From NCBI GenBank assembly GCA_050084515.1, contig CM114271.1, positions 8,308,001-8,372,000 of the forward strand: 64,000 nt of DNA. The letters are read 5' to 3'. Shown here piece by piece: positions 1 to 62,800 of this stretch (positions within the stretch are counted from its first letter, which is position 1; each line of letters begins with the position of its first letter). Under the pieces are notes generated by a model. That model saw nothing but the letters and a program-made list of their open reading frames with translations, was not told the origin of the DNA and ran no database searches. The position numbers and the translations under genes are program-made. The stretch is from Blasia pusilla (Eukaryota).

Positions 1-260
1 TTGACCATTTGATAGAGGTAGGAGATTCCATACTTTACGGTCTCCAATCACTGGTTGGACTGTCGCACCTATTATGTCCTCGGTACCGTCCACCCTAACA
101 TCCTTGGATACAAAGATGGTTCCAATTTGTAGAAGAAATCGAAGAGAGAGAAAATTTTCATCCACTGCTAGAAAGACTCAAGAGCTTGCGGTCGAACGAT
201 TTTTGATTGAGGAAGGGCCGCCAGATGACTGCCACAAGTGAGCTTCACATAATTATCCAT
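1..260 (-). pseudogene. 5' end of MULE transposase (copy 1), runs off the window
   Basis: The minus strand translates VSKDVRVDGTEDIIGATVQPVIGDRKVWNLLPLSNGQ versus VSKDVRVDDMEDVVGETIQPVIADCKVWNLLPLKNGQ in copy 2. ATG at 260 (MDNYVKL) matches ATG at 41613 (MENYVKL). A frameshift/stop lies between. Confidence 0.7.
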
Positions 261-509
261 TCCGAAAAATTTTGTACGGGAGGAGAGTGAGAGTGAGAAT
301 GAGAATTTTTAATTTATAGTGAATAGGAAATCAGATACTCGTGACAAAATTTTACTGACAAGATGAAGTTCGGTAGGTGAAAATGTCTGACACAATGGAT
401 TCAATTCCGTTGCAACCGATTCAATTCCGTTGCAACCGATTCAATTTTGTTGCAATCTGTTACAGGATTTGGGAAGCAAAGACGTGGGTTGCGAAGCACA
501 CTTCATTTC

Positions 510-1196
510 GTTGGAACCCGTCGGAGTCCTGGTTACTCAACTATTAACCCAAGCTAAGCGAAGCCTACAACCCGTCGGCTTCGGACGGGTTGCATGCTTG
601 TGCCTACCTTGAAACGCAAACATGATCAAAGCTGGAAACCCGTCGCTCTCCAAGGAGTTGCTCGGATACCGCGCCTTCTTGCCCGAAGATGGCGGAGGCT
701 TGCAACCCGTCAGCATCAGACGGGTTGCCCAATTATCTCATGGTGTAACACTTACATGAAGGAAGCGTGCAAAGCTTCTATTCTCGACGAGTTCTGCGGG
801 TGCCGCACCTTCTTGCCCAAAGACGGCGAGGCGTGCAACCCGTCGCCCTCCGACGGGTTGCGCAAGGGCCTCCCCTTGTTTCGCTTACATGAAGGAAGCG
901 TGCAACATGTCGGCCTCCAACGAGTTGCGCGGAAAGCCCAGGTTGTTAACCCTTGACGAGGGAAGCGTGCAACCCAACGGTCTCTGACGGGTTGCGCGGT
1001 TACGTCCCGTTCTTGTCCGAAGACGGCGAAGGCGCGCAACCTGTAGATCTCCGACGGGTTGCGCGGGTACCTCCCGTTCTTGTCCGAAGAGGGCGGAGGT
1101 GCTCAACCTGTCGGTCTTCGACGGGTTGCTCGTGCACCTCGCGTTATCGTCCCAGGACGGCGGAGGCGCTCAACCTGTCGGACTCCGACGGGTTGC
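510..1196. repeat. Tandem array (~66-67 bp period, ~11 units), each carrying the palindrome GCAACCCGTCG-N5-CGACGGGTTGC
   Basis: Units at ~567, 636, 702, 835, 902, 969, 1036, 1101 and 1170. The inter-palindrome segments are related to each other (ttcttgtccgaagacggcg...). Confidence 0.9.
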
Positions 1197-1268
1197 CATT
1201 TTTCACGTCCAGACTTCCGTAACGGCCGGCACGTCGCCGGCGGAAGAACGATGCGACCCAACGGTCAG

Positions 1269-1293
1269 CCCAACGGCTAGAAAAGTATAAATA
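1269..1293 (+). promoter_or_regulatory. Putative core promoter (CCCAACGGCT + TATA box) of the ParB-like/MTase-like gene
   Basis: cccaacggctagaaaagTATAAATA. The same arrangement, cccaacggctctgaaacTATATAA, is conserved at 42351-42374 in copy 2. Confidence 0.55.
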
Positions 1294-2274
1294 GGGGAGA
1301 AATCCTTATTTCCGGTTTCTCATTTTGCGATCTCCATTGCTCTCCCGCGCAGAGCTGATCAGATACCAAGGGGCGCTTCACACGGCGAGTCATTGCGAGA
1401 CGATACGAGCAAACGAGAGCAAGACGATTCGACCAAACGATCGCGAGACGATTTGAGCTACCCGTCAAGGCGACTCATCTCGACATCAGCAAGGCGAGTG
1501 ATGAAGCGATTCATCGTGGACATAGGTGGAGGAATTTCTGGGAAAAATGACGAGGAAAAAAGCTCAAGCAAACAAGTCTGGGAGCTTCACTCCCAAGTCT
1601 ATTAGGACTCCTGCGTCACCATCTCCAGGGCCTCGTTCGGAAAATGAGATAAGGCAGCAAGAAATCGAGGAGCGGGAAAGGGAAGCGGAGATGCACAACC
1701 AGGAGCTTCTTGCGAAACGTGTACAAGAGGCGCTCGATAAACAAAACGCATAGGCTGAGATGTCGCAGGCCTTGAAGAAAAGGTTCGCCGACGAAAAGCG
1801 AGAAAAGAAGCGTCTGGACGCGTTGGTGAGAAGAGCAGAATTGGCAAAAGTGAGGAGGGAAAAAGCAATAGCCATTGACGACAGCCCTGCCCGTCCAACT
1901 GAAAGTGTTGAGATGCGGGAAATGTCCCCGATGAAGTTCGGGGACACAATCAATATAGCGGAAATGGCCGAAGTTCAAATCATGGACGATGAGGTCATGA
2001 GGACCGCCGGCGTGGAGATGGTGGACATTGCCGAAGAAGCAGGAGAGCGGTCATCCTCGTCTCCAAGCCCAGCGGAAGAAATTGACCTCTATCGGATCGA
2101 CGAGTTTCCAGTGGACTTTCCAACTGCTGTCTTAGAGCAGTTGGCTGGTCAATAAACCGACCCAATCTTCGAGCAGGTAAGAGAGGATCTGGGTTTTTTA
2201 AATTATGTGAAGGCCCATCTTGCAATTCATTGGCAATTAAGTGTAGCTTACTGATCTTGTCCCGGTTGTGACAG

Positions 2275-2747
2275 GTGGTAAAGCATATGGCACTGATGGA
2301 GGGCCACAACGCCCCGAGAATTCCACTCTCCCGATTGCGGACAATGGAGTACGTCCGCGAAATTCAGTTTGACGAGGATATTGCGAAGCTCAAACCATTG
2401 GCAGCGACAGCATCCTACGTCGACAGCTTCCCTCCATTCTATGTTCAGCCTTACGATGAGCATGGAACCCAAGCGCTGGTTACGGAGGAAGACTTGGAAA
2501 AGCTTGACACATTCTGGAGGATGAGAGATCAGGAATTCAGAAGGCAAGTAGAGGGGACGGAATTCAGCTGGATGAGGAATCTGCATTTCTTCATCTGGGA
2601 TGGAAATCACAGGTTCATGGCGTGGACAAAGTTTGCAGAGGAGCGCCCAAACTCCTTGGAGGCACATTTTTGCGTGAAGGAAGTGGTCCTTCATCCATAC
2701 CCTCATCACATGGCGACGGTGGAGATGGCCATGCATGCCATGAACAC
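2275..2747 (+). CDS. Exon 2: ParB/Srx-like N-terminal domain (DGNHR motif)
   Basis: RIPLSRLRTMEYVREI...FFIWDGNHRFMAW matches the ParB/Srx GxxRxxA signature. Flanked by acag| and |gtaag splice sites. Confidence 0.7.
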
Positions 2748-2759
2748 GTAAGTTTCTTC

Positions 2760-3560
2760 TTGCTGCAAACCGTCGGACTCCGACAAGTGGTTTGAGTCGC
2801 CACTGTTTTTGGGTTGTTTTTGGCCAAACGCAACTTGTCGGACTCTGTCGAGTTGCTCGATTGATGAATGGGTTAGGATGTTTTTGGCCGAAAGCAGCTC
2901 GTCGGAGTCCGACGAGTTGTTCGACTGACCACAAGTTTAGTATGTTTTTGGCCCAAAGCAACTCGTCGGAGTCCGACGAGTTGCTCGACAGGCCGCATTC
3001 TTTGGATGTATTTTGAAGAAAGCAACTCGTTGGAGTCCGACGAGTTGCTTGACTCGCCGTATTTTTTGGATGTATTTCGAAGAAAGCAACTTGTCGGAGT
3101 CCGACGAGTTGCTCGGCTCGCCGCATTTTTTGGATGTTTTGTGAAGAAAGCAACTCGTCGGACTCCAACTGACCATAGGTTTAGTATGTTTTTGGCCCAA
3201 AGCAACTCGTCGGAGTCCGACGGGTTGCTTGACTCGAAGCTATTTTTGGAGTTTTTTTGATGTTTTTGGCTGAAAGCAACTCGTCGGAGTCTGACAAGTT
3301 GCATTCGGAAGTTGGAAGCTACATTTTTCGCGTCAAATTGCAGCTTTCATTGCAATTGCACAACCTGTCGGACTCCGACGGGTTGCTATGTTCACTTTTG
3401 ATACGGACTATCTGACAACTCGTCGGAGTCCGACGGGTTGAAACCATGCAATCACAAATCTGAATGCAATCCGTCGGACTCTGACAGGTTGCATAATTTA
3501 GCTCGTTGCTAGAATCCGACCTTGAGCTATGACGAAGTGTCGGAGTCCGACGGGTTGCAG
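2760..3560. repeat. Intron 2 palindrome array (~13 units, ~64 bp period)
   Basis: Repeated aaaGCAACTCGTCGGAGTCCGACGAGTTGC at e.g. 2958, 3022, 3086 and 3202. Confidence 0.9.
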
Positions 3561-3849
3561 GAACCCATGTACCTTACAAAATTTCTTATATTGAGTTTGG
3601 ATGTGCAGGATTGTATCGGAGGGGAATGTCACCCACCACTGGATCCAAGATTGCGATCGGGTGAAGAAAGTGCTTACAACGCACCCGACAGAGTACAAGG
3701 GGTTCTTGGGCGACGCCTTGGTAAATCAGATGCTGGAAAAGGATGCACAAATAAAAAAGAAGACTTGGGCAAATAAGTTTATTTCCCAAGATGCAACCGT
3801 CACAATCCTTTGCTTGTCGAAGATATAGGCCGCGAAGAAGAGCGCTGCA

Positions 3850-5067
3850 TTGGAGGTGGAGCGGAGGGAGAAAGTATTTGTGTCTGAGCGTGCAAAATTC
3901 ATCGAAGCTACACTATCTGCAGCCACGAAGTACACGGCAAGCAAGATGCAGCGCTACATCGCCATTCTCAACCCCGAACTTGGTCCGGAGTTTTACAAGG
4001 AGTTGAAGGCGATTATCAAGCGCCAGCGAAAAAGGGATGAAGATCCGCAAGGTCGGATTGGGGAGAAAGTGTCTCTCAATCGCGTGCATCGATTTGCATT
4101 GTCAGGAATAAGCGAGTTTAGGAGAATCCGACTGATGAAAATCAGTCTCGAGGGCACAGAGGCCCAGAAGAGAGCGGCACACCATCCTCCGGGTGTGTCT
4201 GATCCAGTGATCTCCCATTGGCTCCGCGAATGGTCGTTTTGGGACGCGTTGCGGCTTATCGAGAAGTCCATGCTGGACGGTCTCCAAGCGGAGCTCAAAA
4301 GAATAGAGCCCATTTTGGATGAAGCATACCTGGAAAGTGCTGTAGATTTCGAACTTTGGCTTGATGACATCTGGGACAAGCCCATCAAAAACCCAAGTTT
4401 CAAGACGATGTTCAAGGATTGCGTCCTCCCTCAGGCAGACCTTGACGAAGAAATCGAGGGGAACAAAAGGGATCTCGCAAAGAAGAAGCGAGATCTTCAG
4501 GAGAATGCGGCCCATTTAGTTCGACTAAGAGCTGCCCAACGGATGGTCTTCAGGTACCTCGTCTATTGTAAGAATGCACGTACCTGGGGAAAAATACCGG
4601 CAGCCTACAAATTTTGGGCTTCTTCGCCTGATGGAGAGACATTCTCCATGTACGACACGGAGATGGCTCAGCACATGTCCGATTGGGAGGTGGAGAATTT
4701 CCCGATTTGGTTGGACTTCAACGACCATGAGGACATTACCGAGAAATATTTACGCGTGCTTCATGATGCAGTGGCCGCAGGACGGGACCACATCCCCAAT
4801 TTTGTGCAGCCTGGAGACTTTTTTGAAGGAGATGCGGAAGAGCAAGCCCTCGAGACAGCGGAGTTGGCTTCCAAGGTCCACACAGCCAAAGACAAATCCA
4901 AAATGGGTCTCAAAGGCAAGGCGAGGGGAGCGAAGAATTTTGAGGACGAGTCTTCCCAAAGAGAGGCTGAAGATTCAAGGCCAGAGCCGGAATCGTCCGG
5001 GCGAGCGGGGAGAGAGGGTCGGACCAGGTCCTCCACGAAAAAACCCCACCAGAGTCTGAGGTCATAG
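3850..5067 (+). CDS. Central part of exon 3 of the ParB-like/MTase-like gene (405 aa open stretch, helical/charged, function unknown)
   Basis: In frame with 3610-3828 across a single TAG. It is the longest ORF in the window and has protein-like composition. Confidence 0.6.
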   Translation: MEVERREKVFVSERAKFIEATLSAATKYTASKMQRYIAILNPELGPEFYKELKAIIKRQRKRDEDPQGRIGEKVSLNRVHRFALSGISEFRRIRLMKISLEGTEAQKRAAHHPPGVSDPVISHWLREWSFWDALRLIEKSMLDGLQAELKRIEPILDEAYLESAVDFELWLDDIWDKPIKNPSFKTMFKDCVLPQADLDEEIEGNKRDLAKKKRDLQENAAHLVRLRAAQRMVFRYLVYCKNARTWGKIPAAYKFWASSPDGETFSMYDTEMAQHMSDWEVENFPIWLDFNDHEDITEKYLRVLHDAVAAGRDHIPNFVQPGDFFEGDAEEQALETAELASKVHTAKDKSKMGLKGKARGAKNFEDESSQREAEDSRPEPESSGRAGREGRTRSSTKKPHQSLRS

Positions 5068-5689
5068 AGACCTTGACAAGCCGACCGCAGACTCGGGAGA
5101 AGCGGAAGCGAGAGGCGCCAGGGTTGTCCTAAGGAGAATACAGTCCATAATCCTTGGGAAGACATAGAAAAACAACGACCCGGACAAGCGTCCTCCTTCA
5201 GTTCACGAATTTACTGGATGAGCTGAAAAGTTTCAGTTCTCAAGCGTCGACACCCGCCATTGATAAATTGACAACGTTGGGACGGAAGCTTCAACGAAAC
5301 GGGCACGCTCCCTGGACGGTCAATGGAGTGGTCAAAGAGGTGGCGGTGGATCTATTGATCGCTGATTTGCCCTCGGGGTTGCGATTGGGGACGAAAATCC
5401 GTCGGACGGGGTACCAGACTAGAATGTTCCCCTTTCTTATGACCAGATCACGCTCCTATTTTTTCTTTGCATACGCTTATCTGAGTGACAGGGGCTACTT
5501 CTTAGTTTTGACTGGAGGGAGCAAGGACGAGCTTTTCAACCTCCAGTGCATCAAGAGGTCGCTAAAGTGGAGGACGGTGCAAGCGTGGATCATCAAGAAC
5601 GAGTACCCACTATGATCTGCGACGAGTCAGATCTGGGTAAGGCTCTATTCCTGTCTCTAGATTGTATATCTCCGACGTTGTTTTTGTCT

Positions 5690-6003
5690 GTGAGCAACCC
5701 GTCGGAAGGCGACAGGTTGTTGGCTTAGAGCAGCCCATGCTTGGTTGAGAGCAACCCGTTGTTTTCCGACGGGTTGCATCTTTCCCAGAAACATAGGGAA
5801 AACGCATTACCACATGCAACCCGTTGGAACCCGACGGGTTGCAGTTGCTTATGGTTTTTCCCTGTGTTTCCGAAAAGCTGCAACCCGTCGGAAAGCAACG
5901 GGTTGCTCTCAACCAAGCATGGGATGCTCTAAGCCAGCAACATGTCGCCTTCCGACGGGTTGGTCATGGACAAAAACAACCCGTCGGACTCCGACAAGTT
6001 GCT
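5690..6003. repeat. Intron 3 palindrome array (~6 units)
   Basis: Units at ~5694, 5750, 5816, 5880, 5937 and 5977, with variable 5-nt centres. Confidence 0.85.
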
Positions 6004-6112
6004 CCAATGTTAGTATTTAAAAGAAGTTCTCTAGGGTCAAGCAAAGTTTTTTGGTGACCTGTTGCACATTATGCCAAGTTTCTGACATTGTTTCCAATGT
6101 GCTTCTTTACAG

Positions 6113-6625
6113 ATGGACCACTCCTATGTTTACTGCTTCGTTTGGCCCGAGCACAACTTCCAGGTGTTCAAGATCCAAGATCCTGTGGATCCATGCTCAG
6201 ATGGGTACAGCTTAGATAGTTTATACAATTCTCCCCCGAGAATTTACATGCAAGACGGTACCCCACTACTTGGAGGAAGGGAAAAATCGCCATCCCTGAT
6301 GCAAACGCTCATCGAGCTCTGCTCAAGGCCGGGTGACTTGGTGTTCGACTTAGTGGGCCTTTCAGGGGCGAGTATCAAAGGCGCCAGGCAGAGTGGCAGG
6401 AACATTCTCTACCTCGAGGGAAGGCAGGAACTATTTGACCTTTGCAAGGAGGCAAAGGGAGATTACGACATGCTCGTTGGGGCGTACAACTCTCCACCGA
6501 AGTCGAGAGCTCCGATTCCCAACCCACCATTGGTAGTGACACCATCGTCACTTCCAACGATTCCGAAAATCGGGAGGGCAAGGCCGGAAGTAATTTTGCA
6601 AGAGCTCTCGGACGATGACCAGTGA
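6113..6625 (+). CDS. Exon 4: SAM-binding half of beta-class DNA amino-methyltransferase-like domain
   Basis: EKSPSLMQTLIELCSRPGDLVFDLVGLSGASIKGARQSGRNILYLE parallels the N6_N4_Mtase pattern QKPxxLxxxLIxxxSxxGDxVLDPFxGSGTTxxAAxxxGRxxxxxE. Confidence 0.7.
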   Translation: MDHSYVYCFVWPEHNFQVFKIQDPVDPCSDGYSLDSLYNSPPRIYMQDGTPLLGGREKSPSLMQTLIELCSRPGDLVFDLVGLSGASIKGARQSGRNILYLEGRQELFDLCKEAKGDYDMLVGAYNSPPKSRAPIPNPPLVVTPSSLPTIPKIGRARPEVILQELSDDDQ

Positions 6626-6699
6626 GTTCAAAGAACTCAAGGACCCAGCTTGACTGCATCGTTTGTAGTAGGGAGTTATTTAATGATGAGGCAAAAGAT

Positions 6700-7810
6700 T
6701 TCATAGAATAGATCAAATGTACAATTCCGAGCTTCTTTTGCATGTAATAAAGGAGAAGATTTTCTCGAACGATGGTGGTGTTTCTAAAAGTTTTCTGAAT
6801 ATCTTTTAAGTCTTTTCGAATGTGATCGTCTATGTACTCCGCGGACTTCTATTTTGCAACCCGTCGGATTTGCACGGCTTGCAACTTTTCACTTTTTGAC
6901 CATTGCACCTTTTTAACCACTTCCAAGCAACCTGTCGGATTCCGACAGGTTGCCTGATCGGACTCTTTCCTTGTTGGTCCAACTTAAGAGGCAGTCTGGC
7001 GGGCTTCTTCACTTTGGCACCTTCCCCTAGTATCGTAAAAGAAGGCGTAGGCTTCTTTTCTTCTCTCAGATGTGTTGGATTCCTACTACCTGTGGGATTG
7101 CCATCATGGTATTACCAAGGACGGAGCACATATTGATACTGGATGGGTGTCACATTGCAGAGCGTACAAGATATACTGCCGAGGAAGGCGATGGGACTCA
7201 AATCAGGTTACATGGGACCGTTATGGTGTACCTAGGGGGGGGCCAAGGCTCTCGAATTTTCCAACATTTTCGATCCCCGTCTACAATCGGCCAGAGGAGC
7301 TACTTGTATCCCCGGACATTCCTTTTGTATAACAACCTAGGAGAGTTAGGAGTAAATTTGTAGATGACGAGGCTGAAGAAATCATAGACTAGGTCAAATG
7401 TACATTTCCGAGGTTCCTTCGGAGGTAATAAAGGACGAGATTTTTTCAACCGATAATGGTGTTGGAAAAAGTTTGCTGGAAATTGTTTTTGGACTTGTGG
7501 ATTGTGTTCTTTTAGGTACTCAATCCACAAGTCCAATTAGCTAATTTTGCAACCCGTATGATTCCGACGGGTTGCAACTTTAAGCTTTTTGCCCACTGCA
7601 ACTTTTTAACCATTTCCAGGCAAGTTGTCGGATTCCGACAAGTTGGCTGCTTGAGTGATCGGACTCTTTCCCTGTGAAACCAACTTCTAACGCATTGTGG
7701 CGGGCTTCTTAACTTTTGGCTCGATCCCCTACATTCGTCAAACCAATTGTAGGCTTCTTTTCTTGTCTAAGATGTGCAGGATTCCTACTACCTGTCGGAT
7801 TGCCATTTCG
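6700..7810. repeat. Diverged direct duplication (~6700-7105 vs ~7380-7810), each with two palindromes; further palindromes to ~8016
   Basis: The blocks gatcaaatgtaca.., tgatcggactctttcc, ggcgggcttctt and gattcctactacctgt are shared in the same order. Confidence 0.8.
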
Positions 7811-8590
7811 GATTCCCAACCCGCTGGATTTTCGTGGGTGCGGGGTGGAAGGGAATCACAGTGAGAAATCTTTCCTTTCTTATGGTGAGCTTGCTTGCAA
7901 GGGGTGCAAGCCATCTGATTCCAATGGGTTGCAAGAGTTGCAACCTGTAAAATTTCGATGGGTTGCAAGAGTTGGAGGCCCCCAAGAGTTGCAACCTGTA
8001 AAATTCCGACGGGTTGGGAGGATCTTAATGAAGTGACATCACTTCCTCTTTACTCCAGAAAACTAACAATCTTTTGGTTCAATTATCGTCTCATGTGTTC
8101 ACATTTCACAAAGTTGGTCTTGAGCAGACACCACTCATAACCAACAGAAAGTTGGTTATGAGGCAATTCAGGGAAGGCCATGATGCAGGCAACAATCCCT
8201 GCAAAAAGAGAGGTTGGCATCGTATTGATGCGCATCCGGGTGGTCTTCCAACAAAAATATCCATGGGCACTGCTTATTGTAGACCAAGACAGGCAATGTT
8301 AAGAATTTTAGGCTCACATGGAGAGTGATGGAAAATTGTTTGGAGTGGTCTTATGATGTCTATTTTTTTTTCGCGCCCTGGAAAAAGGAGGTTTCTTTAG
8401 GGCCAAATGTGGACCACTACCTACTCTCTTCTAAAGATTTCATGAATTTGAAAGCAAACAAAAATTTCAAATATGTCACAAAGTTTTGAAGAGAAGAGGC
8501 AGATTTGGCCCTTTTTTTTGAAGAGAGACTCTCCTCTCTTCCTCTCTTCCTCTCCTCTCTTACTCTCTCCAGTCAAAATACCAGCCCCCG

Positions 8591-10151
8591 CAATTGTATG
8601 TGGTAGTGCATGGCTATGAGTCGTTCATCATAGGCTTAGGATGTAAGTCAAGAGGACAGACAAGGAGTATTTGAGGTGAGAGCTCGTATGTGGATAAGCA
8701 CCTAGAACAGGACCTTGTGTTGGATTACACTCGGCCTCGCCCTAGCGTCGGCGAGACAGATGAAGTCTATCTTGGGGCTTGGGGTGATCTTACTTGTGGC
8801 TTCAGAAGTAAACTTAGTGACGCGCCTAAGTCGAATACGAGAGTGACCCAATAGAAGTACAAATTGTAGATCAGGTAAACAAGTGTGATGTTTAGAGGAA
8901 TGAGCCAGAAGAGTCTAAGGTTGCACACTTAGTTAGCTTATTTGATAGGTTAGTTCTTTGGAATGAGTCCAAGCTTATCAAAGAGGAGAGGGTAATAATT
9001 CTAAGTGGTGCAAAGCGACAACTGTAGACTTAGAGGAATTGCAGGTTAGCCACCAGAACGCAATTCAATGTCAAGGGGTAGGCTGCCCAAGAGACTTGAC
9101 ATAACACATGTTTGCGTTGATGAGGGCATCAACCTTTAAAGAGGGGTGAGTGTCGTGATCCTCATGACCAAATGAGTGCCAAAGCGGAACATCGGAACAT
9201 TAGCGGGCTCACGCTAAGATGGTTTGCGCGTTGGAGTAGTCTCGAAGAAGAGACAAGAGACAAGACGCAAGCGAGCCTTCGCGTTTCAGATGTTGTGGTC
9301 GCGACCGAGAAACCTGGACCAAACGCGGAATAAGACTTGAAAGGAGTCGAGTCTAGAAAGTGGGTTGCCAAAGGAAGAATCCGGATTTGGAACGCCACTA
9401 GCGTTTGAGAGTTTCCGACTGTATCTATAACCATAACTTTTAGCGCCGAGATGAGTTTGGATTAGACAAGGGTGCATTGGAAGGCTTATGGAAAGCTGAT
9501 TCAAACGCACTAAAGATCTCTACAAACGGATAAGCAGCGGCTGAGGAAAAAAACCAAGAAACGATTGTAATTAGAGTCGGGTTGAGGGCCACAATGAAGG
9601 GCCCGACCCTCCTTTTCCAAAGGGGGGTTATTGGAGAACCCAGAAGTACTAGTAAGGGGGAAGGTCTCCAAGAGTGCTTGGAACTCGAATCCCACTTTGG
9701 GTGCCACACGGCGGCTCAAGGGCGTGGAACGGATCGAGAGTTTGGGGTTGGGTTGGAAAACCTGAACCAAGTCTACGGAGGTGATTTTAGACATCCCTCT
9801 TGGATTTCACACCGCGACTCAATTTCTTGGGTCTCGGTTTGGAGCTCGCACCAGGTCCGTTGAACAGTTGGGATCGCTAGGCGCGCAAGTGCCATTTTAG
9901 GTTCCTGGACTAATCAGGAAGTCTGTTCCAAGTCTTGAAGGACTTGCCATGTTTTGGAAACTAGGAATTAAGGAAGGTTGAGCTTGATGAGACGCCGAGT
10001 TGAGAACTCGGTGGGTTGGAACGCTGGTTGGCCCGGACCCGACTAACAAGAGTGCGTGTTTGGGTGCAGATCGGCGATGAGATCGTGTCCTACTGAACAT
10101 ACGCTTTCGCAACACTAAAGATTGACGTTCAATGAGAGTAGGGGCACGACA
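8591..10151 (+). mobile_element. Long LTR (chromovirus family, 5'-truncated/solo)
   Basis: High similarity to 33031-34593. Ends ...gtaggggcacgaCA. The homologous LTR end at 40192 is followed by a PBS and gag. Confidence 0.8.
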
Positions 10152-25200: not shown

Positions 25201-26392
25201 ATTTTTTGTTGTTGTATATGTAATAATGTATTGATTAGTGGTAGGAGACATAACTATGGGCTTGATAGTGAAGGTTTGAATCTTGCCCAAGACATGGACA
25301 AATGAGGTCGGTGGATGGAGTGTTGTCAGACGCAGTTCATGGTTGGATGAATGGACAAAGTTGGTGGATGGACGGATGGGTCGATGGATGGAGTTGATGG
25401 ATGGATAGACACATGGAATGTCGATGGAGAAAGAGTTGATAAACTGATGGAGGATAGGACGTATGAACAAATGGAGTTGATGGAGTTATTGAAGGTGAGA
25501 GAGATCCGGATAGAGGGTACAACATATGGACGGAGATAATTGATGTAAGGATAAACATAATATTTTGTCATTTATTCTTATTTCTATGTCATTGAATCAT
25601 TTGCCATATCATCTATATGATGTAACAAGCATGAATATATGACTCAAATTTTTGTGCCATGACAATAAAGCATGCTAATCATCGCAATTATTTGAAAGAT
25701 ATGCAAGGTGTCACAAAAACGGACTTGTCCAAAAAATTATAGACATCAAGTTTGCATGTGGAAAAAGTCATTGTCCATGTCCTTGGACTTACGTCCATCT
25801 TATGGAAGGACTTGCCCCCACCATCCCCTTCTTTCTCATTCCCCCCACTTGCCTTTGTGTTCCATACTCTCCCGTTTTTTCTTCCCTCTACCTCCACTCC
25901 CTCCTCCCTTATTTCCCCACTCGCCCTTGCCCTACTTTCCATCATTAAGTTTGGGTCTCACCTCTTGCAGTCCATGTCCGTGGAGAGGAGCAATATGAGG
26001 AGAGGAAGAGAGGAGAGAGGAAACTACCTTCAACCCAAAGAGATATTTTTTTCTTGAAGAGAGTTTCCTGTGATTTGAAGAGAGTTTCCGTTGGGTTGAA
26101 GGAAGGAAATTTTTTTGTAATTTTTTTTGCACTTTTGTTCTCAATGCTTAGGCACTCCCACAGATTTTTTTCCTCTTGCACATTTTAGCAACCCATCTGA
26201 ATCCGACGGGTTGCAATTTGCATAAAATTTCAAAAAATATAAAAATCATTGGAATCATAAATGTGGAACAAATCACTTTTTCCATCCAAGGTCTGGAAAA
26301 ACTCTATCATTTGCCCTGGGATGAATAGAGTTCAAGCTTAAAGTGAAGGTTCTAGCAAATGAAAGTACAATCTAAGACATCATTTTGCATCC

Positions 26393-29300
26393 TCAAAGTA
26401 GTTTGTTTAAAATACTTCGCACTTCTTTGAGGGACATAATTGGTTGGTGGAATCCTACTCCTACCTCCGACTCTCTGAAAACTACAAGCAACACGTAGTA
26501 CATGTGCTTACAAGGGAAATACCTTTTCCCACTTGTCTCTCTTTGGACAAAGTCTTCATAGGAACATGTGGGAAAGCAACAGATGTGCACCACATACACC
26601 CCTGTGACACTTGAATTTACAATGTTGTTCTTGATCCAAAACATCCTTCCTATTCCATTACCACTCTCGACATCTTTTGTGGCGATGATTTCCATGTTTG
26701 CCTCCGGAACTGATGCGATTCGCTTTGCTCTCTCCACCGTTGGCCTACACATTCTATTTCTCTTCACCCCATTTCTAGACTCAAACAGAAATAGTGGATT
26801 GAGATCATCCACCTTCTCTCGGTACATGTTGACATCAATCTTGGGTTGAATACGAAATGCGAAGGTCTTTGTAATGCAAACATGATCCGAACTTCCTCCG
26901 TGAACGAGTATGAAACCGACACTTGTAAGATTGTCCACTTCATCCTAAGTGCAATTCATACTTGCGGCAATGGGCCAAATCGTGGGGGTATTTCCTGTAG
27001 CTCCAATGGCAGCCGGATAAGACTTACGGAAAGCGCAATATTTATTTGGGCAGAAGAAGTACTCCAATTGATCCCCGGTCCTTGTGAAATGATCAAAGGT
27101 CTTGAGTCCCCAAAATCTAGGCAGTGGTTGTCCAGTCCTTGTACAGTTCTTATTTAGGAAAGTGCCGCATGCTCTCCTAATGCCATCATATCATGCCCTG
27201 CAAGTGGCTCCACATACAGGTTTGCTCCGAGATATATGCCACCTTTTGAGGTTGCAATCCACCTCAATGACCGGAATCCCATGCTATTGAACTACCCTAG
27301 AGACCGGATGTTGCGAACTTCCAACAACGGAGGGCTTATGAAATAAAACATTCACTGATTTTGGAGAAGTTACTGCATCTCATATTTGGGAGCAATCCGG
27401 GGTCTCCCAATACCTGGGCGGCATAATTTCTTTATCCAAATCAATCACCCGGTTCGTTCCTCAATGTTGAAGTCAAGATATTTATCTGGTCTCCACGAAT
27501 CTCGCTTGGACTGCTCTACCACCATCTATATGGGACGTCTTGAAACACGCCCATGAATATCCCCACCAATGTGGACATCTTGCTCGAGGGGAGTTCTTGC
27601 TACGCACCGATTGAAGGCTTCCACATAGAGTTTCTAATCAACAAATCTTACAGCCGCCTTGACATAGACCTCGTAAATTGAAGGCCCCTTTCCTTTTGTT
27701 ATGCCTTTTGTGAGGAAGATATGGGATGCTGCAGACTGTAGCGTTGCTCTTGCATGGTCTTGTTGGTATGCCTCAACGAGTGGAATTCTTTGGCATGCTG
27801 GTGACGACCTCTAGGAGGAATGAACACTTTCTGCTCCACTTGTCTTGGGGCAGAGGCCATTTTCATGAATGTTCTATCCCTGCAACGACGACAATGTGAG
27901 AAGGGAACAAAAATAGCTCTATGAGCAAAGAAAAAAGCAACCTGTCGAAACCAGACGGATCGCAAGTCGAAGGCATCCCATGAATGACTCTGTGACCCAT
28001 CGGTTTTCGACTTGTTGCAACACCCAGGAACCACCTAGTGCAACCCGTCGGATTCAGATGGGTTGCAAGTAACTTTGGTCACTCCGCGTTGGAAGATCCA
28101 AGTGCAAGTCATCAGAATCCGACGGGTTGCACATGGATTTTCCAGCCTCGGACTTGAAACGGGTTGCAAGTCGGAGACATCCCTGGAATGTCCCAGTAAC
28201 CTTTTACTTCAACCTAGCACCCAAGAACCTGCTACTGCAACCCGTTGGAATCGGACGGATTGTGAGAAGCAGGCCGGTCCGGTCTCGAAAATCCTTGTGC
28301 AACGTGTCGGATTCCGTTGGCTTGCAAGAAGTGTCCACACACAAAGCTTTCAAACTATTGGAATTTGACGGGTTCCAATTAACTTGCGTTGATGCAACAT
28401 ATCTGGATGCGAGGACTTGTAGACATCAACAACCTGTTTGAATGCGAGGAGTCGCATACAGACGCAACTAGTCAGAATCTGACATGTTGCAGACGCACGC
28501 AACTTGTCGGAATCCGACGGGTTGTAGACCGAGTTAACTTGTAGCCTTGCGGCTTGCGACCCATCTGGGTCAAACTATTTGCAGGCCTTGTATACATGCA
28601 ACTTGCAACCCGTCGGGATTCGACAGGTTGCACACTCATGCAACCAGTCAGGTTTTGACGGGTTGCACAAACATTCCTCGTGCATGATGTCGCACTCTGA
28701 CGGGTGTGACACTTAAGCAACCAATTGAGTTCCAATGGGTAACACAAACATTCTTGATGCAATGTGTCGATTTCCGACGGGTTGCACACCTAGACAACCC
28801 GTCGCATCCGACGGGTTGCTTGGTTTCTGCGGTTTGAAATCCCTATAGTGCCCACGCTTCTCAACTTAAGCTGCAACTTTTCAAAAACATCTCAGCATGA
28901 GCTCAACAGGACGAAATACTGAACTCACCTACTGCATGAAGTTTCCCCATTGTCTCATTTGTACAGTCCACCAATTGAGCCAAGAGCACAACTCTTTGTA
29001 CTTCCCCTCAATCGCATGCTTCCTCCACCACCCATGAAGTTCTTCTTGGCACTCCATGGTCAGTTTCAAGGTTTTGCTGTCCTTGCAACGTTCAAGTAGA
29101 GTGACATGCTATGTCCTCTTATTCTTCTTGATGCAAGATTTGGTGTATCGGGTCACAGATTGTTGCCAATGGAAAGCATGCGACCTTTCCCTCTCTGGTT
29201 GACCCTCTCCACCCGAGAACACTCCCCTGATAGCAATCCACCCAGGTTGTGCATTGTCTGCCATAAATCCATAAATTTCCGGAGATGGCCTTTTGTTTTT

Positions 29301-41580: not shown

Positions 41581-42676
41581 TAGGCTCTCATGTAATTTCA
41601 CATAATTTTCCATGTGGATATGAAAACAAAGATAATTCCACAGGAAAGGAAGGGAATGAGAATGAGAATAAGAATAAGAGTGAGATAGTTGAATTTAGAG
41701 TGAACATTGTCCGTTTATTTTCTGACATGAAGTTGGTAGTTAGGTTGAACCGTCACTAGTTGACAAGACCAAGCGACCAAGAATATTTCTATGTTAGATG
41801 AATGGGTAAGCAACCAATCAAAGTTTGAGGAGTTGATGTGGAGTCTCCTGTAAGAGTTGGGATGAAATCAAGTCAATTTGGAAATGCAACCCGTCGGACT
41901 CCGATGGGTTGCAAGGGGTCATGTTGGTCAACTAGTCAGATTCCGACGGGTTGCTTTATTGCAAATGTAAGTGATTCTGCGGTAAGAAGAGGGTCCCCGA
42001 TGGAATTTGTTCTACCCATCGGATTTTGACATGTTGTAGTTGGTCCAAAGTTGGGGGTCTTTAGGACGTACGTGAAAGAAGAGTGGGAAGGGGTTCATTC
42101 AACCTTTCGAAATCCGACTGGTTGCATTGACCTCTTGAAAAGGCGTATGGTGTACAGCCTCCCGGGGTAAGTGCAACCTGTCGGATTCCTTCAGGTTGGG
42201 CTAGGAGAATGCTCTAAACTTTGTTCGAGAGTAACCCATCGGAATTCGTTGGGGTTGCACAATGCACGCGCTGTAGCGGTCCACCGTTGTTGTCGCCCCA
42301 ACGGACAATGGTCGATGTCACCCCAATAGTCTTCAGTCGCCGTCGCTTGGCCCAACGGCTCTGAAACTATATAAGGACCAACTTTGACGTCTTTCATTTT
42401 TTCATTTTCCACGATTAAGCAAGAGCTCCTCTCCCTCCGAGGACTTGGTTGGTTGGGAGTGAATCAGAACGACATTCCCCCCTATAGTTTTGGTAGTTGG
42501 TGCGCATTCCCTTAAGCTTGACCGCAAAATGGTTGGTGATCCTTCAGTTGGAAGGTGACGACAGTTTGGGTGGATATCCTTTGAGCTGCCACGGTCAGGC
42601 TGAGCTTGACTCCACGATTTCATGACAGCTCTTCTCCCCTCGAGGACTTAGTTGGTTGGCAGTGCATCAACACGAT

Positions 42677-46239: not shown

Positions 46240-47754
46240 AGGGTACTATTGGGAAATGGACAAAGAAGGGAAGCGAGACCTTCGAGTGAAGTGGAAGAGA
46301 CGACTCCATTACAAATAGGTTCGCAACAAATAGGATGAGGAAAGAAGAATTGGCCAGAGAAGTTTGAGGTTATTGCACCACCATTGAGTTTCCTCCATTT
46401 TAACATTGTCTGTACATATGGGACGTGTTGGGCTTTCCACTTCTAGGGCCAAAGCCTTCTCCTTCTAGAATTTGGAGCCACATCCTTCTCCTTCAATAAT
46501 TCTTGCAACCTCAAGAGATGGCATATTTCTCGAAGCAACCCCAAACATGGATCCACTTGCATGGAAAGATCGGATGAAATAAGGATTGCATGTCGGGCTT
46601 TCCTGAATAAGAACCGTTCAAATACTCCGCGACCTTTGCCAAGCTTTTGAGGGCTGAAAACCTTTGATCGTTTTACAAGGACAGGGGATCAATTGAAGTT
46701 CTTCTTCTGCCCAAATTAAACGTGTGCTTTCCGAAAATCATACCGAGCTACCATTGGAGCTCTTAGGAATACCCCCATGATTTGGCCATTGTTGCAAGAA
46801 CCAATTTTACTCAGGAGGAAGTGGACAATCTTACAAGTGCAGGGTTCAAAGTGGTAGACAAAGGGAGTTTGGAACATGTTCGCTTTACACAGACATTTGT
46901 ATTTCGTATCCAACCTAAAACTGATATCAACCTATATCCGAAGAAGGTGGATGATCTAAACAGAATGTGTAGGTCAACAATGGAGAGAGCAAAGTGAATC
47001 GCATCAGTTTGGGAGGCCAACATGGAAATCATTGCCACAAAAGGTGTTCACATTGGGAATGGAATAGGAAGGATGTATTGGGTAAGGAACAATACTGTGA
47101 ATTCAAGTGTTCCTAGGGTGTATGTTGTACACATCTGTTTCCTACGTGTTTCTGGGATGACTTTGTCCAAAGAGAGACAAGTGGGAAAAGGTAGCTCCCT
47201 TGTAAGCACGTGCAGTATGTTTTGCTTGTAGCTTTAAGAGAGTCGGAGCTAGGAGTAGGAATCTATCAACCAATTAATTTGGGCCCTTAAAGAAGTGTGA
47301 AGTATCCTAAACAAGCCACTCTGAGGATGCAACATCAGGTCTGATAGTAGTTTGGAATTGCCAAACTATTAAATGCAATCTAGAACTTTCATCAATGTGC
47401 TTAAATTAAAAAAATTTCAGACCTTGTATGGAAATGTGATTTTTTCCACATCTGTGATCCAATGATTTTTTCAATTTTATAACTATGTGTTGAGAAATGA
47501 TTGGATGGAGGAAAGTTTCATCTATGTTGCAACCCGTCGGATTCAGATAGGTTGCCATAGTGGGGAGGAGGAAACAAAGTTTTTGGGAGTGACTAAGAAA
47601 AGAGAACATAATTTTAAGATTAAAAAAAATGTTTCTCCCTTTCTTCAACTTATAGGAAGCTCTCTTCAACCTATAGGAAACTCTCTTAGAAAAAAGGATC
47701 TCTTTGGGTTGACAATAGTTTTCTCTCTCCTCTCTCTCTCTCCTCCTCTCCTCT
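46240..47754 (+). mobile_element. Mutator-like transposon copy 3: transposase 3' end with SWIM finger and terminus, inverted relative to copy 2
   Basis: FTQEEVDNLTSAGF...FVFRIQPK and GIGRMYWVRNNTVNSSV match 26393-26938. Palindrome at 47528. 47660-47754 is the reverse complement of 25985-26080. Confidence 0.8.
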
Positions 47755-59898: not shown

Positions 59899-62800
59899 TC
59901 ACAAGGTTCTCCCCAAACCAGAGTATGTTGTTTGGGGTACAAGAGGATTGACAGCATCCGTGAAAACCTCGGAATCTAGCCTATCCATTACTAGCCAGAC
60001 CTGCAAACAAGAGAGAAGGAATCTTCGTCAAAGTGGTCTTCCACACTAGGAGACAAGGCCTGTCAAAGCATTTTCCATGTTTGAAAATACAACAAATAAA
60101 GTTTGATATGGGTAGAACACCTCTATGACAGTCGAACCTATCTAGCCCAGGCAGTAAATCCATCATAGTGAAGAACACTGAATTTGGAGCTCAAGACTTT
60201 CTGTTATGTTATGAAATTGTCAGGCTCACCTCTGTAGCATAGTGCCTGGAAATGCCTCGCAAGTACCCTAGTGTGCACTTGCGCCATTGGAGCTCTTCCT
60301 CATTTTGAAGCTCTTCTTTGCTTGACACTCCATTACTCTTCTCCCGACCATACCTGCTCAGCTTGAACAGAAGGCTTCAGCTTTTGATGGAACTCGAATG
60401 AGAACTAGAGTAAAATTACTACCTTACTACTCTCAGACCAGAAGACTACAGAGACACCTTTTTGGTAACACTGGACAAAAATTAGTGCCACTAGGCCAGG
60501 TCACAAACAGTTAAGTACTTACTGTACATAAAATGCTCAGACAATAAAATCAGGTTCTAATCTTAGGGACTACCTACTGCTCAGCACACATAGAGGATAC
60601 TCCTTGAGATATCTTTGAGAAACAAACTAACATGTTCTTATCATAGGGCCTCTTCACTTGATGCTGATCCCATTCCAGTTTGACCCATGGAAAACTACTC
60701 ACATAGAACATCACTTTAAACAAGAGGAACCATCTGATTAGAGAAGGTACTATGTACCTTTGGTTTCTACGTTCACCATCAGTGTCCATATCTGCATCTT
60801 CTGCTCCTGCTGCACCTTCTTGGTCAACCGCCATGGCCTCCTCATTAGATGCCGATTTATTCTCAGCCTTCAAAGACTTGGACATTCCCTCAGATAACAA
60901 AGGTCTTGATAATCGGTCTGTTAAAATAGTGGCAAAGTTCTGGAAAACAGCCATGAATAGAGCCTGCCAGAGAAGAGAAAAGATCCATTCAATGATACTC
61001 AACTCCCCATAATATCTGAAGGCATTGCCATACTTTAAGTAGGGGAATTGAAAAATTTTCTTCAACTACACCACTCCCACCAGTGCTAGCTTAAGGAAAA
61101 GATACTGGCATCCAGGGCTTGCCTACCAATAGAATGAAATTCCAATTTATTGTAGAGGTACTTGTGATGAAGTTTCACTGCCTAAATATTCTCTCATGTA
61201 CATCACACTATCACTGCTCAATCTCAAACAGAGAAACCATATTAGTTTAGCTGGACATGAAACTCATTTACATGTTAACACAACTGACTAACTTATAGTC
61301 ATTATGTTCCCTTAATTGATAATGTATGAGTAAAGTGGGTATTACAGTCAACAAATGTCTCAGAACATCAAAATTATCCTACCAAAGTTTCTCCTTACAA
61401 AATGATGTCTATTTTCATGCTAAGCTCCTGAATGGTTTGATCACTGTCATCTGGTCCTCACTATTCTTCCATTAAATGCTGTTTCGTATTTCTTTCTGTT
61501 ACGCAATAGCAGTGGCAAGCCTAACAGATTTTTTGGCATTCACAGACTTGCTTATACATAAATAGCTCAACCTGAAGGATCCATCAGGCCCACTCAAACT
61601 GGATGTAGACCCAGAAACTCATGAATTTACACATGACAAATAGCCGAAGAAGTCTGTTTGTGGGAGAACATACCTCCTGTTCCCGTAGGGCTCGAGCAAG
61701 AAGAGCCTCTTTGGCTTGAAGAGACTCTTGCCAAGTAGTTTCATCATCTTTCGCTTTTCTCAAAACAGATTTAGCCCACTCGCTCTTGGCATTAGCGGAG
61801 ACCCTTGCCTCCTCTGGATCTGCTAACTCCAACATGGTTTGTGCAGTTTCCAATTTGGCCTCTGCTTTTGTTACAGCTGCAGTGGCAACACTTAATTGTT
61901 TCTCCACAGACGCTACATCATTCTGTAAATCTGCCTTCCGGTTGTTTGTCTTGTTGATTGCATTTTCAAGCACCTGCAATTCAGGATCAAATGCTCTGAG
62001 TTTGCACCAGCACTTGGAAAGAATTTCAAGATAGCTTTTTAACAGTCTCGAAGATAAATCTCAGACAACCCACCTCCCAAACTTGATTTGATGTGTGGAA
62101 TCGGTTCACGTTCTCAGCAGAGAATACCCAAGCCACAATTGCCAAATTAGAAACAATGCGAAACCCCATGAGACGATCGATCAAAATTGCTGTCATCTGG
62201 GCTGAGTTTCTCCAGAAGACGGCAACAGCTTCAATCATTGCCACCTGCCAAGTATGATTTGAAGCAGCTAGTTTACTTAACACTGTGCCATACCATTCCA
62301 GTATTGTCACTGTGTGGGTGAAACTCTTTGATCCAATAAAAAGAAAGGTTTGCACAGCAATCTCAATTGCCATTTTCTGCCCATGGACCGGCAATATCTT
62401 CTCCTCGATGTACACTTGAATGTCCCTTGCACTTTTCTTTGCTCGAGTCATTCCTACTAATTCAGTAGCTATAGTCATCTCTGCCTCGGATACTCCTTGT
62501 GGATCGGCGTCATATTTATAGTTTGGCCCACTTTTCGGGGGCAGTAGCTCTATCAGCTTGGGACTGCTATGCAAACTCTGTTAATGACCAAGAAAGCAGA
62601 CATTTCTGGATTAATACAACATACAGTATGGGCTTGAAGTTGACACATCTCACAGACTAGCGTCAGAAATTGACGAAGGGTCAGACTTCCTCGGCTGAAA
62701 TGTCAAATGTAACCCCTACACAAACTTATTCCATCATCAAGCCTTACATCAGATACGACATGCTCTTGTATTGTTGCTTAAGGCAAAGAATTAATCTAGT

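Follow-up and report, generated by a model that had tools for sequence, protein, structure and literature searches.

Within the 64,000-nucleotide stretch of the Blasia pusilla genome analyzed in this study (contig CM114271.1, positions 8,308,001 to 8,372,000; hereafter the window, numbered from its first letter), a gene of approximately 1,200 codons was predicted on the forward strand at 1547-6625, with a domain resembling beta-class N6-adenine/N4-cytosine (N6A/N4C) DNA methyltransferases (MTases) as its probable C-terminus. The putative gene has four exons, all on the forward strand (1547-2176, 2275-2747, 3609-5636, and 6113-6625), which join in frame through GT..AG boundaries. Exon 1 would begin with the ATG at 1547, downstream of a TATAAATA at 1286-1293, and would encode a lysine/glutamate-rich N-terminus, ending at the donor cag|gtaaga at 2176/2177. 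Exon 2, which is open in the window copy and holds FFIWDGNHRFMAW, is followed by the predicted intron 2 (2748-3608, forward strand; GTAAGT..CAG), which contains a 64-bp tandem array with 23 half-sites of a palindrome described below. Exon 3 encodes a middle region without known domain, homologous to the N-terminus of proteins from the moss Ceratodon purpureus, and then the motif IV half of the MTase-like domain. Exon 4 encodes the variable region, motifs X, I, and II, and an acidic C-terminal tail, and terminates with the TGA at 6623-6625. The interval between them (5637-6112, forward strand; 476 bases, GT..AG, phase 0) is most likely an intron that splits the MTase-like domain, as the first-pass annotation of this DNA had proposed: the Ceratodon protein has no counterpart of it and its alignment crosses the junction without a gap, and RNA depth is 0-0.6 in 5589-6050 versus 5-20 in exon 4. 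A further 45-nucleotide GT..AG stretch inside exon 3 (5123-5167), with a length that is a multiple of three and stop codons at 5130 and 5148, may be either a mini-intron or a product of decay.

The two halves of the domain lie in separate open reading frames (ORFs). The motif IV region, VDLLIADLPSG, is encoded at 5346-5378 (forward strand) in the frame of ORF 5151-5615, and EKSPSLMQTLIELCSRPGDLVFDLVGLSGASIKGARQSGRNILYLE is encoded at 6281-6418 (forward strand) within ORF 6086-6625; motifs X-I-II in the latter read EKSPSLMQ...GDLVFDLVGLSGAS...RNILYLE, the stretch EKSPSLMQTLIELCSRPGDLVFDLVGLSGAS...RNILYLE being a product of the same interval. The order of motif IV followed by X/I/II is the permutation characteristic of the beta class, a claim of the first-pass annotation that is borne out both by the order in the sequence and by a collinear profile alignment to six bacterial enzymes. 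Among the 134 ORFs of at least 90 codons in the window, a single match to the Pfam family PF01555 (N6_N4_Mtase) was found, at 6086-6622, and of four pieces compared with Pfam only one matches this family. The match of the exon 4 ORF (E 5.6e-4) aligns residues 66-121 of this second ORF with profile positions 165-220 (of 221), at 20.4 bits and thus below the cut-off of 26.7 bits; relatives of the protein score 15.7-26.5 bits and likewise remain below this gathering cut-off. The same C-terminal stretch is matched by DNA methyltransferase families of PHROGs (E down to 2.5e-5) and by the type II MTase models of PADLOC (MTase_II, E 1.3e-4).

Profile comparisons extend this similarity. When a profile of the family was compared with the sequences of solved structures, 11 matches were obtained at E<=10, of which nine were beta-class DNA MTases and the other two were unrelated; M1.HpyAVI/DpnA (3e-5) and CcrM (5.7e-3) ranked highest, followed by TTHA0409, RsrI, the rotifer enzyme N4CMT, and MboIIA. 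For direct comparison with bacterial enzymes, the window copy was read through with an X at each break, aligned with the Ceratodon domains, and compared by local hhalign with six beta-class MTases taken from a metagenome scan. The resulting alignment (probability 93.8, E 1.7e-7) spans 203 columns, beginning at the strand that precedes motif IV and reaching motif II, and places A-D-x-P-x-G-L of the family on D-P-P-Y-n-l of the bacterial enzymes. MAFFT independently places the Ceratodon sequence ADAPEG under the bacterial DPPY/SPPY, and the helix following motif IV (DYVENLFYFASYHLTDVG) under the bacterial segment Y-x-x-W/Y-x-E-x-W-F...L-x-x-x-G; the row for window positions 5241-5612 was misaligned by MAFFT and was excluded from the alignments used for folding. 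The E-values of the profile and sequence searches led us to reject chance similarity as an explanation. Judged by its sequence, the C-terminal half is clearly related to beta-class N6A/N4C MTases beyond chance, as the first-pass annotation had suggested, and these comparisons indicate that the domain descends from bacterial or phage enzymes of this class.

The catalytic and cofactor-binding motifs of the domain depart from those of its presumed ancestors. At motif IV (5346-5378), the window copy has D-L-P-S, aligned by both hhalign and MAFFT under the catalytic (D/S)-P-P-(Y/F/W), and its motif I reads D-L-V-G-L-S-G-A-S, which differs from the S-adenosylmethionine (SAM)-binding D-P-F-x-G-x-G. 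The first-pass annotation had recognized both alterations and had left open whether they reflect decay of this copy or a change in the whole family; both processes are in evidence here. The window copy is a pseudogene, with in-frame stops at 1751 (TAG), 2153 (TAA), 3826 (TAG), 5420 (TAG), and 5613 (TGA), two further TAA codons at 5130 and 5148 inside the possible mini-intron (five to seven stops in total), and frameshifts near 5037 (one base missing), 5387, and 5459. The motif IV half itself is damaged by the frameshifts near 5387 and 5459 and by the stops at 5420 and 5613, breaks that the first-pass annotation had overlooked. This decay is private to the window copy or partial, since about half of the whole-genome sequencing (WGS) reads from other copies (same species label) lack the frameshifts: an additional base follows 5037 in 299 of 541 reads and 5387 in 92 of 168, and one base fewer is present at 5459 in 56 of 109.

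A HMMER search of 1.84 billion representative proteins yielded eight matches at E<=1e-3 (none at 1e-10), seven of which are true relatives; the eighth (P0007) is a TPR/HEPN protein matched over residues 95-142 only and was discarded as unrelated. The seven relatives comprise a 758-residue protein of Ceratodon purpureus, the moss in which the closest named relatives of the gene occur, together with six fragments, 103-203 residues long, that come from ENA, Logan, and JGI records and in some cases carry the label 'DNA modification methylase'. A further search added two Ceratodon paralogues and a cluster look-up a fourth. These four members (P0001, P0009, P0017, and P0018) bear the locus tags M758_9G084500, M758_3G218200, M758_1G310400, and M758_6G158200, which indicate chromosomes 9, 3, 1, and 6, respectively; all are annotated as 'hypothetical protein', and their gene models are open over 758-810 residues, starting downstream of the equivalent of window exons 1 and 2. 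By BLASTP, the window copy and the Ceratodon protein are collinear in three blocks, namely the middle ORF (E 3e-4), the motif IV half (E 2e-6, 25% identity over 97 residues), and the motif I half (E 5e-16, 45% over 62 residues), so that collinearity begins in the middle region and extends through the acidic C-terminus, at 24-45% identity. Other searches returned no additional members. Word-index protein searches gave no relative of exon 4 among longer proteins (492 candidates) and none of the middle ORF among 5,978 candidates, a scan of viral contigs gave none among 277 pattern matches, and the ESM Atlas contained no usable match for the middle region. A metagenome scan with the fragment alignment recovered 11 loci, all of them ordinary bacterial MTases at 28-43% identity that fall outside the eukaryotic family and served only as a bacterial reference set.

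Both motif departures recur in these relatives. All four Ceratodon proteins have I-D-M/L-I-F/I-A-D-A-P-E-G-L at motif IV (for example, IDMIFADAPEG) and V-F-D-W-S-A-N/S-T-G-A-S at motif I, and seven fragmentary relatives have D-L-S/T-x-x-T/C-x-A/T-S at the latter. Across the relatives, motif I can be summarized as D-L/W-S/T-x-S/N/L/G-T/C-G/S/R/E, in which the phenylalanine is absent and the first glycine replaced; the D-P-F-x-G-x-G pattern occurs in neither the window copy nor its relatives, the position of the first glycine of the SAM loop being occupied by Ser, Asn, or Leu, or by Gly, depending on the sequence. The catalytic tetrapeptide is D-L-P-S in the window and D-A-P-E in all four Ceratodon proteins, such that the aspartate and the second proline of motif IV are retained in both lineages and the tyrosine position holds serine or glutamate. 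Other positions are strictly kept, with exon 4 residues G49, Q64, G74, D79, S87, and E102 invariant in all 11 aligned sequences; these include the motif I aspartate and the acidic residue of motif II (E102, at the end of strand 2). Most sequences, among them the window copy and those of Ceratodon, also retain the last glycine of motif I. Additionally, the domain is 93% and 90% identical between Ceratodon paralogues that are 80% and 78% identical over the whole protein, and it therefore evolves more slowly than the rest of the protein.

One potential explanation for the altered motifs is decay alone, with the intact members of the family being ordinary DPPY/FxGxG enzymes of which the window and Ceratodon sequences are relics. 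The window copy, with its stops and three frameshifts, is plainly a pseudogene, and the in-genome consensus at the motif codons is not readable from the differences listed, both of which agree with this explanation. However, the four Ceratodon models are open and share an identical ADAPEG and a near-identical DWSA(N/S)TGAS, seven further fragments from other sources have the same kind of non-canonical motif I, and independent decay would not produce identical substitutions at 25-45% identity. We therefore regard decay as a very improbable sole cause. Because the departures are common to lineages that are only 25-45% identical, they are not attributable to decay of the window copy, and the alignment indicates that the changes in motifs IV and I are family-level.

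The gene sits in a repeat unit of approximately 7.6 kb that is present in several hundred copies. Reads from a WGS sample (about 1% of one run) were mapped on positions 1200-8100 at a likeness of at least 88%, and 33,800 reads were recovered, of which 72 were at least 99% alike, 2,500 were 95-99% alike, 20,144 were 90-95% alike, and 11,084 were below 90%. Depth was approximately 210-1,110 in all 30 bins of this interval, with coding and non-coding parts covered alike, which indicates that the repeat comprises the entire unit. If the 72 near-identical reads are equated with roughly 1.6-fold single-copy depth, a rough estimate of a few hundred copy equivalents results. Read depth demonstrates the high copy number, and in Ceratodon the locus tags, which point to four chromosomes, suggest dispersal in that moss. 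The right end of the unit, near 8020, is approximate; depth drops in the last bin (7899-8100). The downstream non-coding part (6626-8020) includes 10 palindrome half-sites, a 34-bp repeat at 7895-7974, and a diverged tandem duplication (6683-7104 and 7364-7806, 75% identity). A joint from 6634 to 7115 was seen in both RNA and DNA reads; since it also occurs in DNA, it represents a structural difference between copies, with approximately 480 bases absent from other copies, rather than splicing.

Transcription of the unit was detected at a low level. RNA reads mapped in numbers of 303, 387, and 317, none of which were at least 99% alike; it is therefore other copies, and not the window copy, that are transcribed. 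The first mates of RNA reads on exon 4 and the 3' region lie mostly on the minus strand, which usually corresponds to sense (forward-strand) RNA. Over the palindrome array of intron 2 (2817-3740), sense-strand RNA reaches up to about 25-fold, above most exons, and every RNA read there differs from the window copy, such that the transcripts of other loci carry such arrays. In addition, a 44-base piece of exon 2 (2325-2368) occurs in 34-49 RNA reads per run that have unrelated sequence on both sides and a fixed G>A at 2359, and whose mates are oriented opposite to those on exon 4; this fragment seems to be embedded in another, better-expressed transcript.

The non-coding parts of the unit are rich in a 27-bp palindrome, GCAACCCGTCGGA-n-TCCGACGGGTTGC (of the GCAACCCGTCGGAnTCCGACGGGTTGC type). 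Its half-site, GCAACYCGTCGGA, has 83 matches in the window with at most two mismatches, compared to an expected 1.11, and 55 of these fall at 513-8017, usually as complete 27-bp palindromes. All 55 lie outside the predicted exons, with 14 upstream (513-1196), 23 in intron 2, eight in intron 3, and 10 downstream. The arrays have periods of 67 and 64 bp (Tandem Repeats Finder and repeat search). Upstream of the gene (398-1196), a 20-bp repeat at 398-455 is followed by units of approximately 67 bp, each with one 27-bp palindrome, and intron 3 contains a foldback, or long inverted repeat, of 318 bp (5671-5988) with the same motif, whose arms (5677-5783 and 5874-5980) are 93% complementary (-163 kcal/mol as DNA, z -25). 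WGS depth over the foldback is below that of its flanks, and it is possible that only some copies carry it. The remaining 28 half-sites cluster at 26188-26214, 27937-28819, 41886-42243, and 47529-47541, where the palindrome is the only sequence in common with the unit; these clusters may represent relatives that are non-autonomous, or a different repeat family with the same site. A search of the accessible literature for the palindrome returned nothing fitting.

On balance, and with a confidence slightly above even, we favor the interpretation that the high-copy repeat encodes a large protein in which the domain persists as a conserved pseudo-methyltransferase module, an interpretation argued from motif logic and by analogy. 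Under this interpretation, the domain would retain its fold and perhaps a pocket for a nucleotide or SAM, would have lost methyl transfer, and would act for the element in DNA binding or regulation, for which the element's own 27-bp palindrome arrays would be the obvious candidate target. Loss of catalysis and DNA binding are both proposed on this basis, and the link of the protein to the palindromes is put forward as a hypothesis. According to the accessible text of PMC10406627, motif IV of CcrM and N4CMT engages the target base in two ways, with its Asp/Ser and first Pro holding the amino group and its Tyr stacking on the base. In the family described here, Ser or Glu stands in place of the stacking aromatic residue, and Ser, Asn, Leu, or Gly occupies the position of the first glycine in the SAM loop. 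Similar substitutions are seen in catalytically dead relatives such as METTL14.

These same positions can be read in another way, with the family remaining an active DNA or RNA methyltransferase that has an unorthodox active site and a changed target or mechanism, and whose substrate would be the palindromes of the element itself or host DNA. The residues retained in motifs I and II (the Asp and last Gly of the former, the Glu of the latter) and in motif IV (the Asp and second Pro) would suit an enzyme, as would the position of the domain as the best-conserved part of the protein among Ceratodon paralogues, and active eukaryotic beta-class enzymes of bacterial derivation exist in the rotifer (N4CMT) and in Marchantia (DN4MT1). 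However, as far as the accessible portions of the reports go, both of these enzymes keep the full motif, which is S107PPY110 in N4CMT (PMC10406627) and TSPPY in DN4MT1 (bioRxiv preprint), and both the missing aromatic residue and the altered SAM loop of the present family argue against activity. An active enzyme is therefore considered unlikely.

Several observations weigh against the pseudo-methyltransferase interpretation. Altered motifs are by themselves no proof of inactivity, and SAM binding through the retained D79, G85, and E102 would still be possible. For motif IV, only two lineages are documented (the window and Ceratodon), the seven fragments comprising the C-terminal half, and none of the 40 single-letter differences listed for other copies in the genome (out of 1,346) falls in the motifs. 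Compared alone with the bacterial enzymes, the N-terminal (motif IV) half yielded an hhalign E of 0.027 and a probability of 1.8, so its similarity to bacterial MTases is marginal at best. An AlphaFold model from a family-only alignment had a mean predicted local distance difference test (pLDDT) score of 40.9 and was confident only in the last 70 or so residues, where the SAM half attained approximately 70-80 in its helix-strand-helix-strand-helix core; addition of bacterial MTase rows gave a pLDDT of 50.7 and a predicted template modeling score (pTM) of 0.55. All 12 Foldseek matches of the model at E<=1e-3 were beta-class N6A/N4C MTases, with template modeling (TM) scores of only 0.30-0.38. 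This result is partly circular, given that bacterial rows stood in the folding alignment; it is consistent with the homology and does not confirm a Rossmann-like, seven-stranded MTase fold across the domain. No spliced joint from 5636 to 6113 was present among the 15 of 192 RNA joints listed, and the presence of protein and palindrome in one repeat unit is the only connection between them. With regard to mobility, no Pfam domain of a transposase, recombinase, or reverse transcriptase was found in positions 1-8100 or in neighboring ORFs, no inverted repeat apart from the palindrome motif links 100-1300 with 7400-8600, and no target-site duplication was found (from a single copy, whose ends cannot be fixed from it); copy number is what suggests that the repeat is a transposable element.

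It is conceivable that the unit is not mobile at all and represents either a multigene family of the host or the product of segmental amplification at one locus, with palindromes that inserted into its introns and flanks as unrelated elements resembling miniature inverted-repeat transposable elements. The lack of a transposase, terminal inverted repeats, and target-site duplication in our searches would fit such a family, as would the spliceosomal-type introns of the gene and the annotation of the Ceratodon copies as ordinary genes. The palindrome also occurs at 26.19, 27.9-28.8, 41.9-42.2, and 47.5 kb with nothing else in common with the unit, and the depth over the intron 3 foldback is below that of its flanks, both of which speak for this alternative. 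However, the whole of 1200-8100 is covered several hundred-fold by reads 88-95% alike, which is typical of a dispersed repeat, and all 55 half-sites avoid the exons, in arrays that flank the gene upstream and downstream and occupy two of its introns. We consider an immobile host family to be improbable.

A more specific version of the pseudo-methyltransferase interpretation includes the N-terminal part of the protein. Language-model look-alikes of the exon 2 sequence FFIWDGNHRFMAW score 0.94-0.96 and include a cluster named 'ParB/Sulfiredoxin domain-containing'; one look-alike cluster has PF02195 on 11% of its members. The DGNHR of exon 2 resembles the DGQHR/DGQQR motifs. No ParB/sulfiredoxin match for exon 2 was found in Pfam, NCBIfam, PHROGs, PADLOC, or the sequences of the Protein Data Bank, and a ParB/sulfiredoxin-like N-terminal domain is offered as a lead only. 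If present, it would give the protein a ParB-plus-MTase architecture, which is common in phages and plasmids. By analogy with ParB/parS, a phage-type ParB-plus-MTase protein of a land-plant repeat family might then have been kept as a catalytically dead, sequence-specific binder of its own 27-bp palindrome arrays, a proposal that we regard as speculative and doubtful. If correct, the element would be able to recognize itself, whether for clustering, for evasion of silencing, or for mobilization, unlike any described eukaryotic transposon protein.

Compared to the bacterial and phage beta-class MTases (PF01555; CcrM, M.RsrI, M1.HpyAVI/DpnA, M.BceJIV, and M.PvuII), the family shares the motif order IV...X-I-II, the aspartate of motif I, the glutamate of motif II, and the 'EKS/QKP' position of motif X. 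It differs in having D-L/A-P-S/E-G at motif IV and a motif I without the phenylalanine and first glycine, and in being eukaryotic, intron-split, embedded in a protein approximately 1,200 residues long, and located on a high-copy repeat. The Ceratodon M758_ proteins, with the same motif substitutions, are true family members. Rotifer (Adineta vaga) N4CMT and Marchantia polymorpha DN4MT1 are likewise eukaryotic genes of bacterial beta-class ancestry, and N4CMT structures are among the matches of the family (8s9m, E 0.22 by sequence profile and 2.5e-4 by Foldseek). Unlike the present family, the two enzymes are reported to be active in the accessible portions of their descriptions, and they are single or tandem host genes rather than members of a family of hundreds; no close sequence relationship to them was seen. 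A precedent for a pseudo-MTase kept in this way is the MTase-like domain of the DIRS1 retrotransposon, which is also element-borne and which, in the accessible part of a 2016 survey of eukaryotic adenine MTases, was judged inactive from substitutions at catalytic and substrate-binding positions (PMC4738411). That domain differs in belonging to the PCIF1-like MTase group and in lying inside a retrotransposon polyprotein (PMC4738411), whereas the present unit has neither a reverse transcriptase nor a recombinase.

Beta-class N6A/N4C MTases are rare in eukaryotes, and N4CMT and DN4MT1 have changed views on N4-methylcytosine (4mC) as a eukaryotic mark. The accessible text of the 2016 survey reports few N6A MTases in land plants and contains no such land-plant family (PMC4738411). 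In addition, our literature searches (ParB, MTase, and transposon in moss; N6_N4_Mtase and plant transposable element), whose scope excluded subscription journals and Repbase/Dfam, returned no description of the family. If our interpretation is correct, the family would represent a third eukaryotic lineage, with hundreds of copies in genomes of bryophyte type and a conserved motif change, in which an enzyme fold has been reused by a selfish element. It would also call for caution in surveys that infer a capacity for N6-methyladenine (6mA) or 4mC from the presence of an N6_N4_Mtase-like domain. Furthermore, the protein and the 27-bp palindrome form a defined candidate protein-DNA pair.

The window as a whole has a eukaryotic, plant-like character, and beyond this unit the Pfam matches of its ORFs consist of copia- and gypsy-type retroelement domains and one host-type ORF. 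Decayed remnants of long terminal repeat (LTR) retroelements lie at 13.7-15.1, 17.8-21.1, 32.6-32.9, 40.9-41.8, and 53.1-54.5 kb; they include copia-type gag, RVT_2, and integrase SH3 domains, a gypsy-type integrase chromodomain, and pieces of gag zinc knuckle and protease. The host-type ORF, on the minus strand at 62029-62580, matches MIF4G_like_2 (E 1.2e-27) and looks like a host exon of the nuclear cap-binding protein subunit 1 type.

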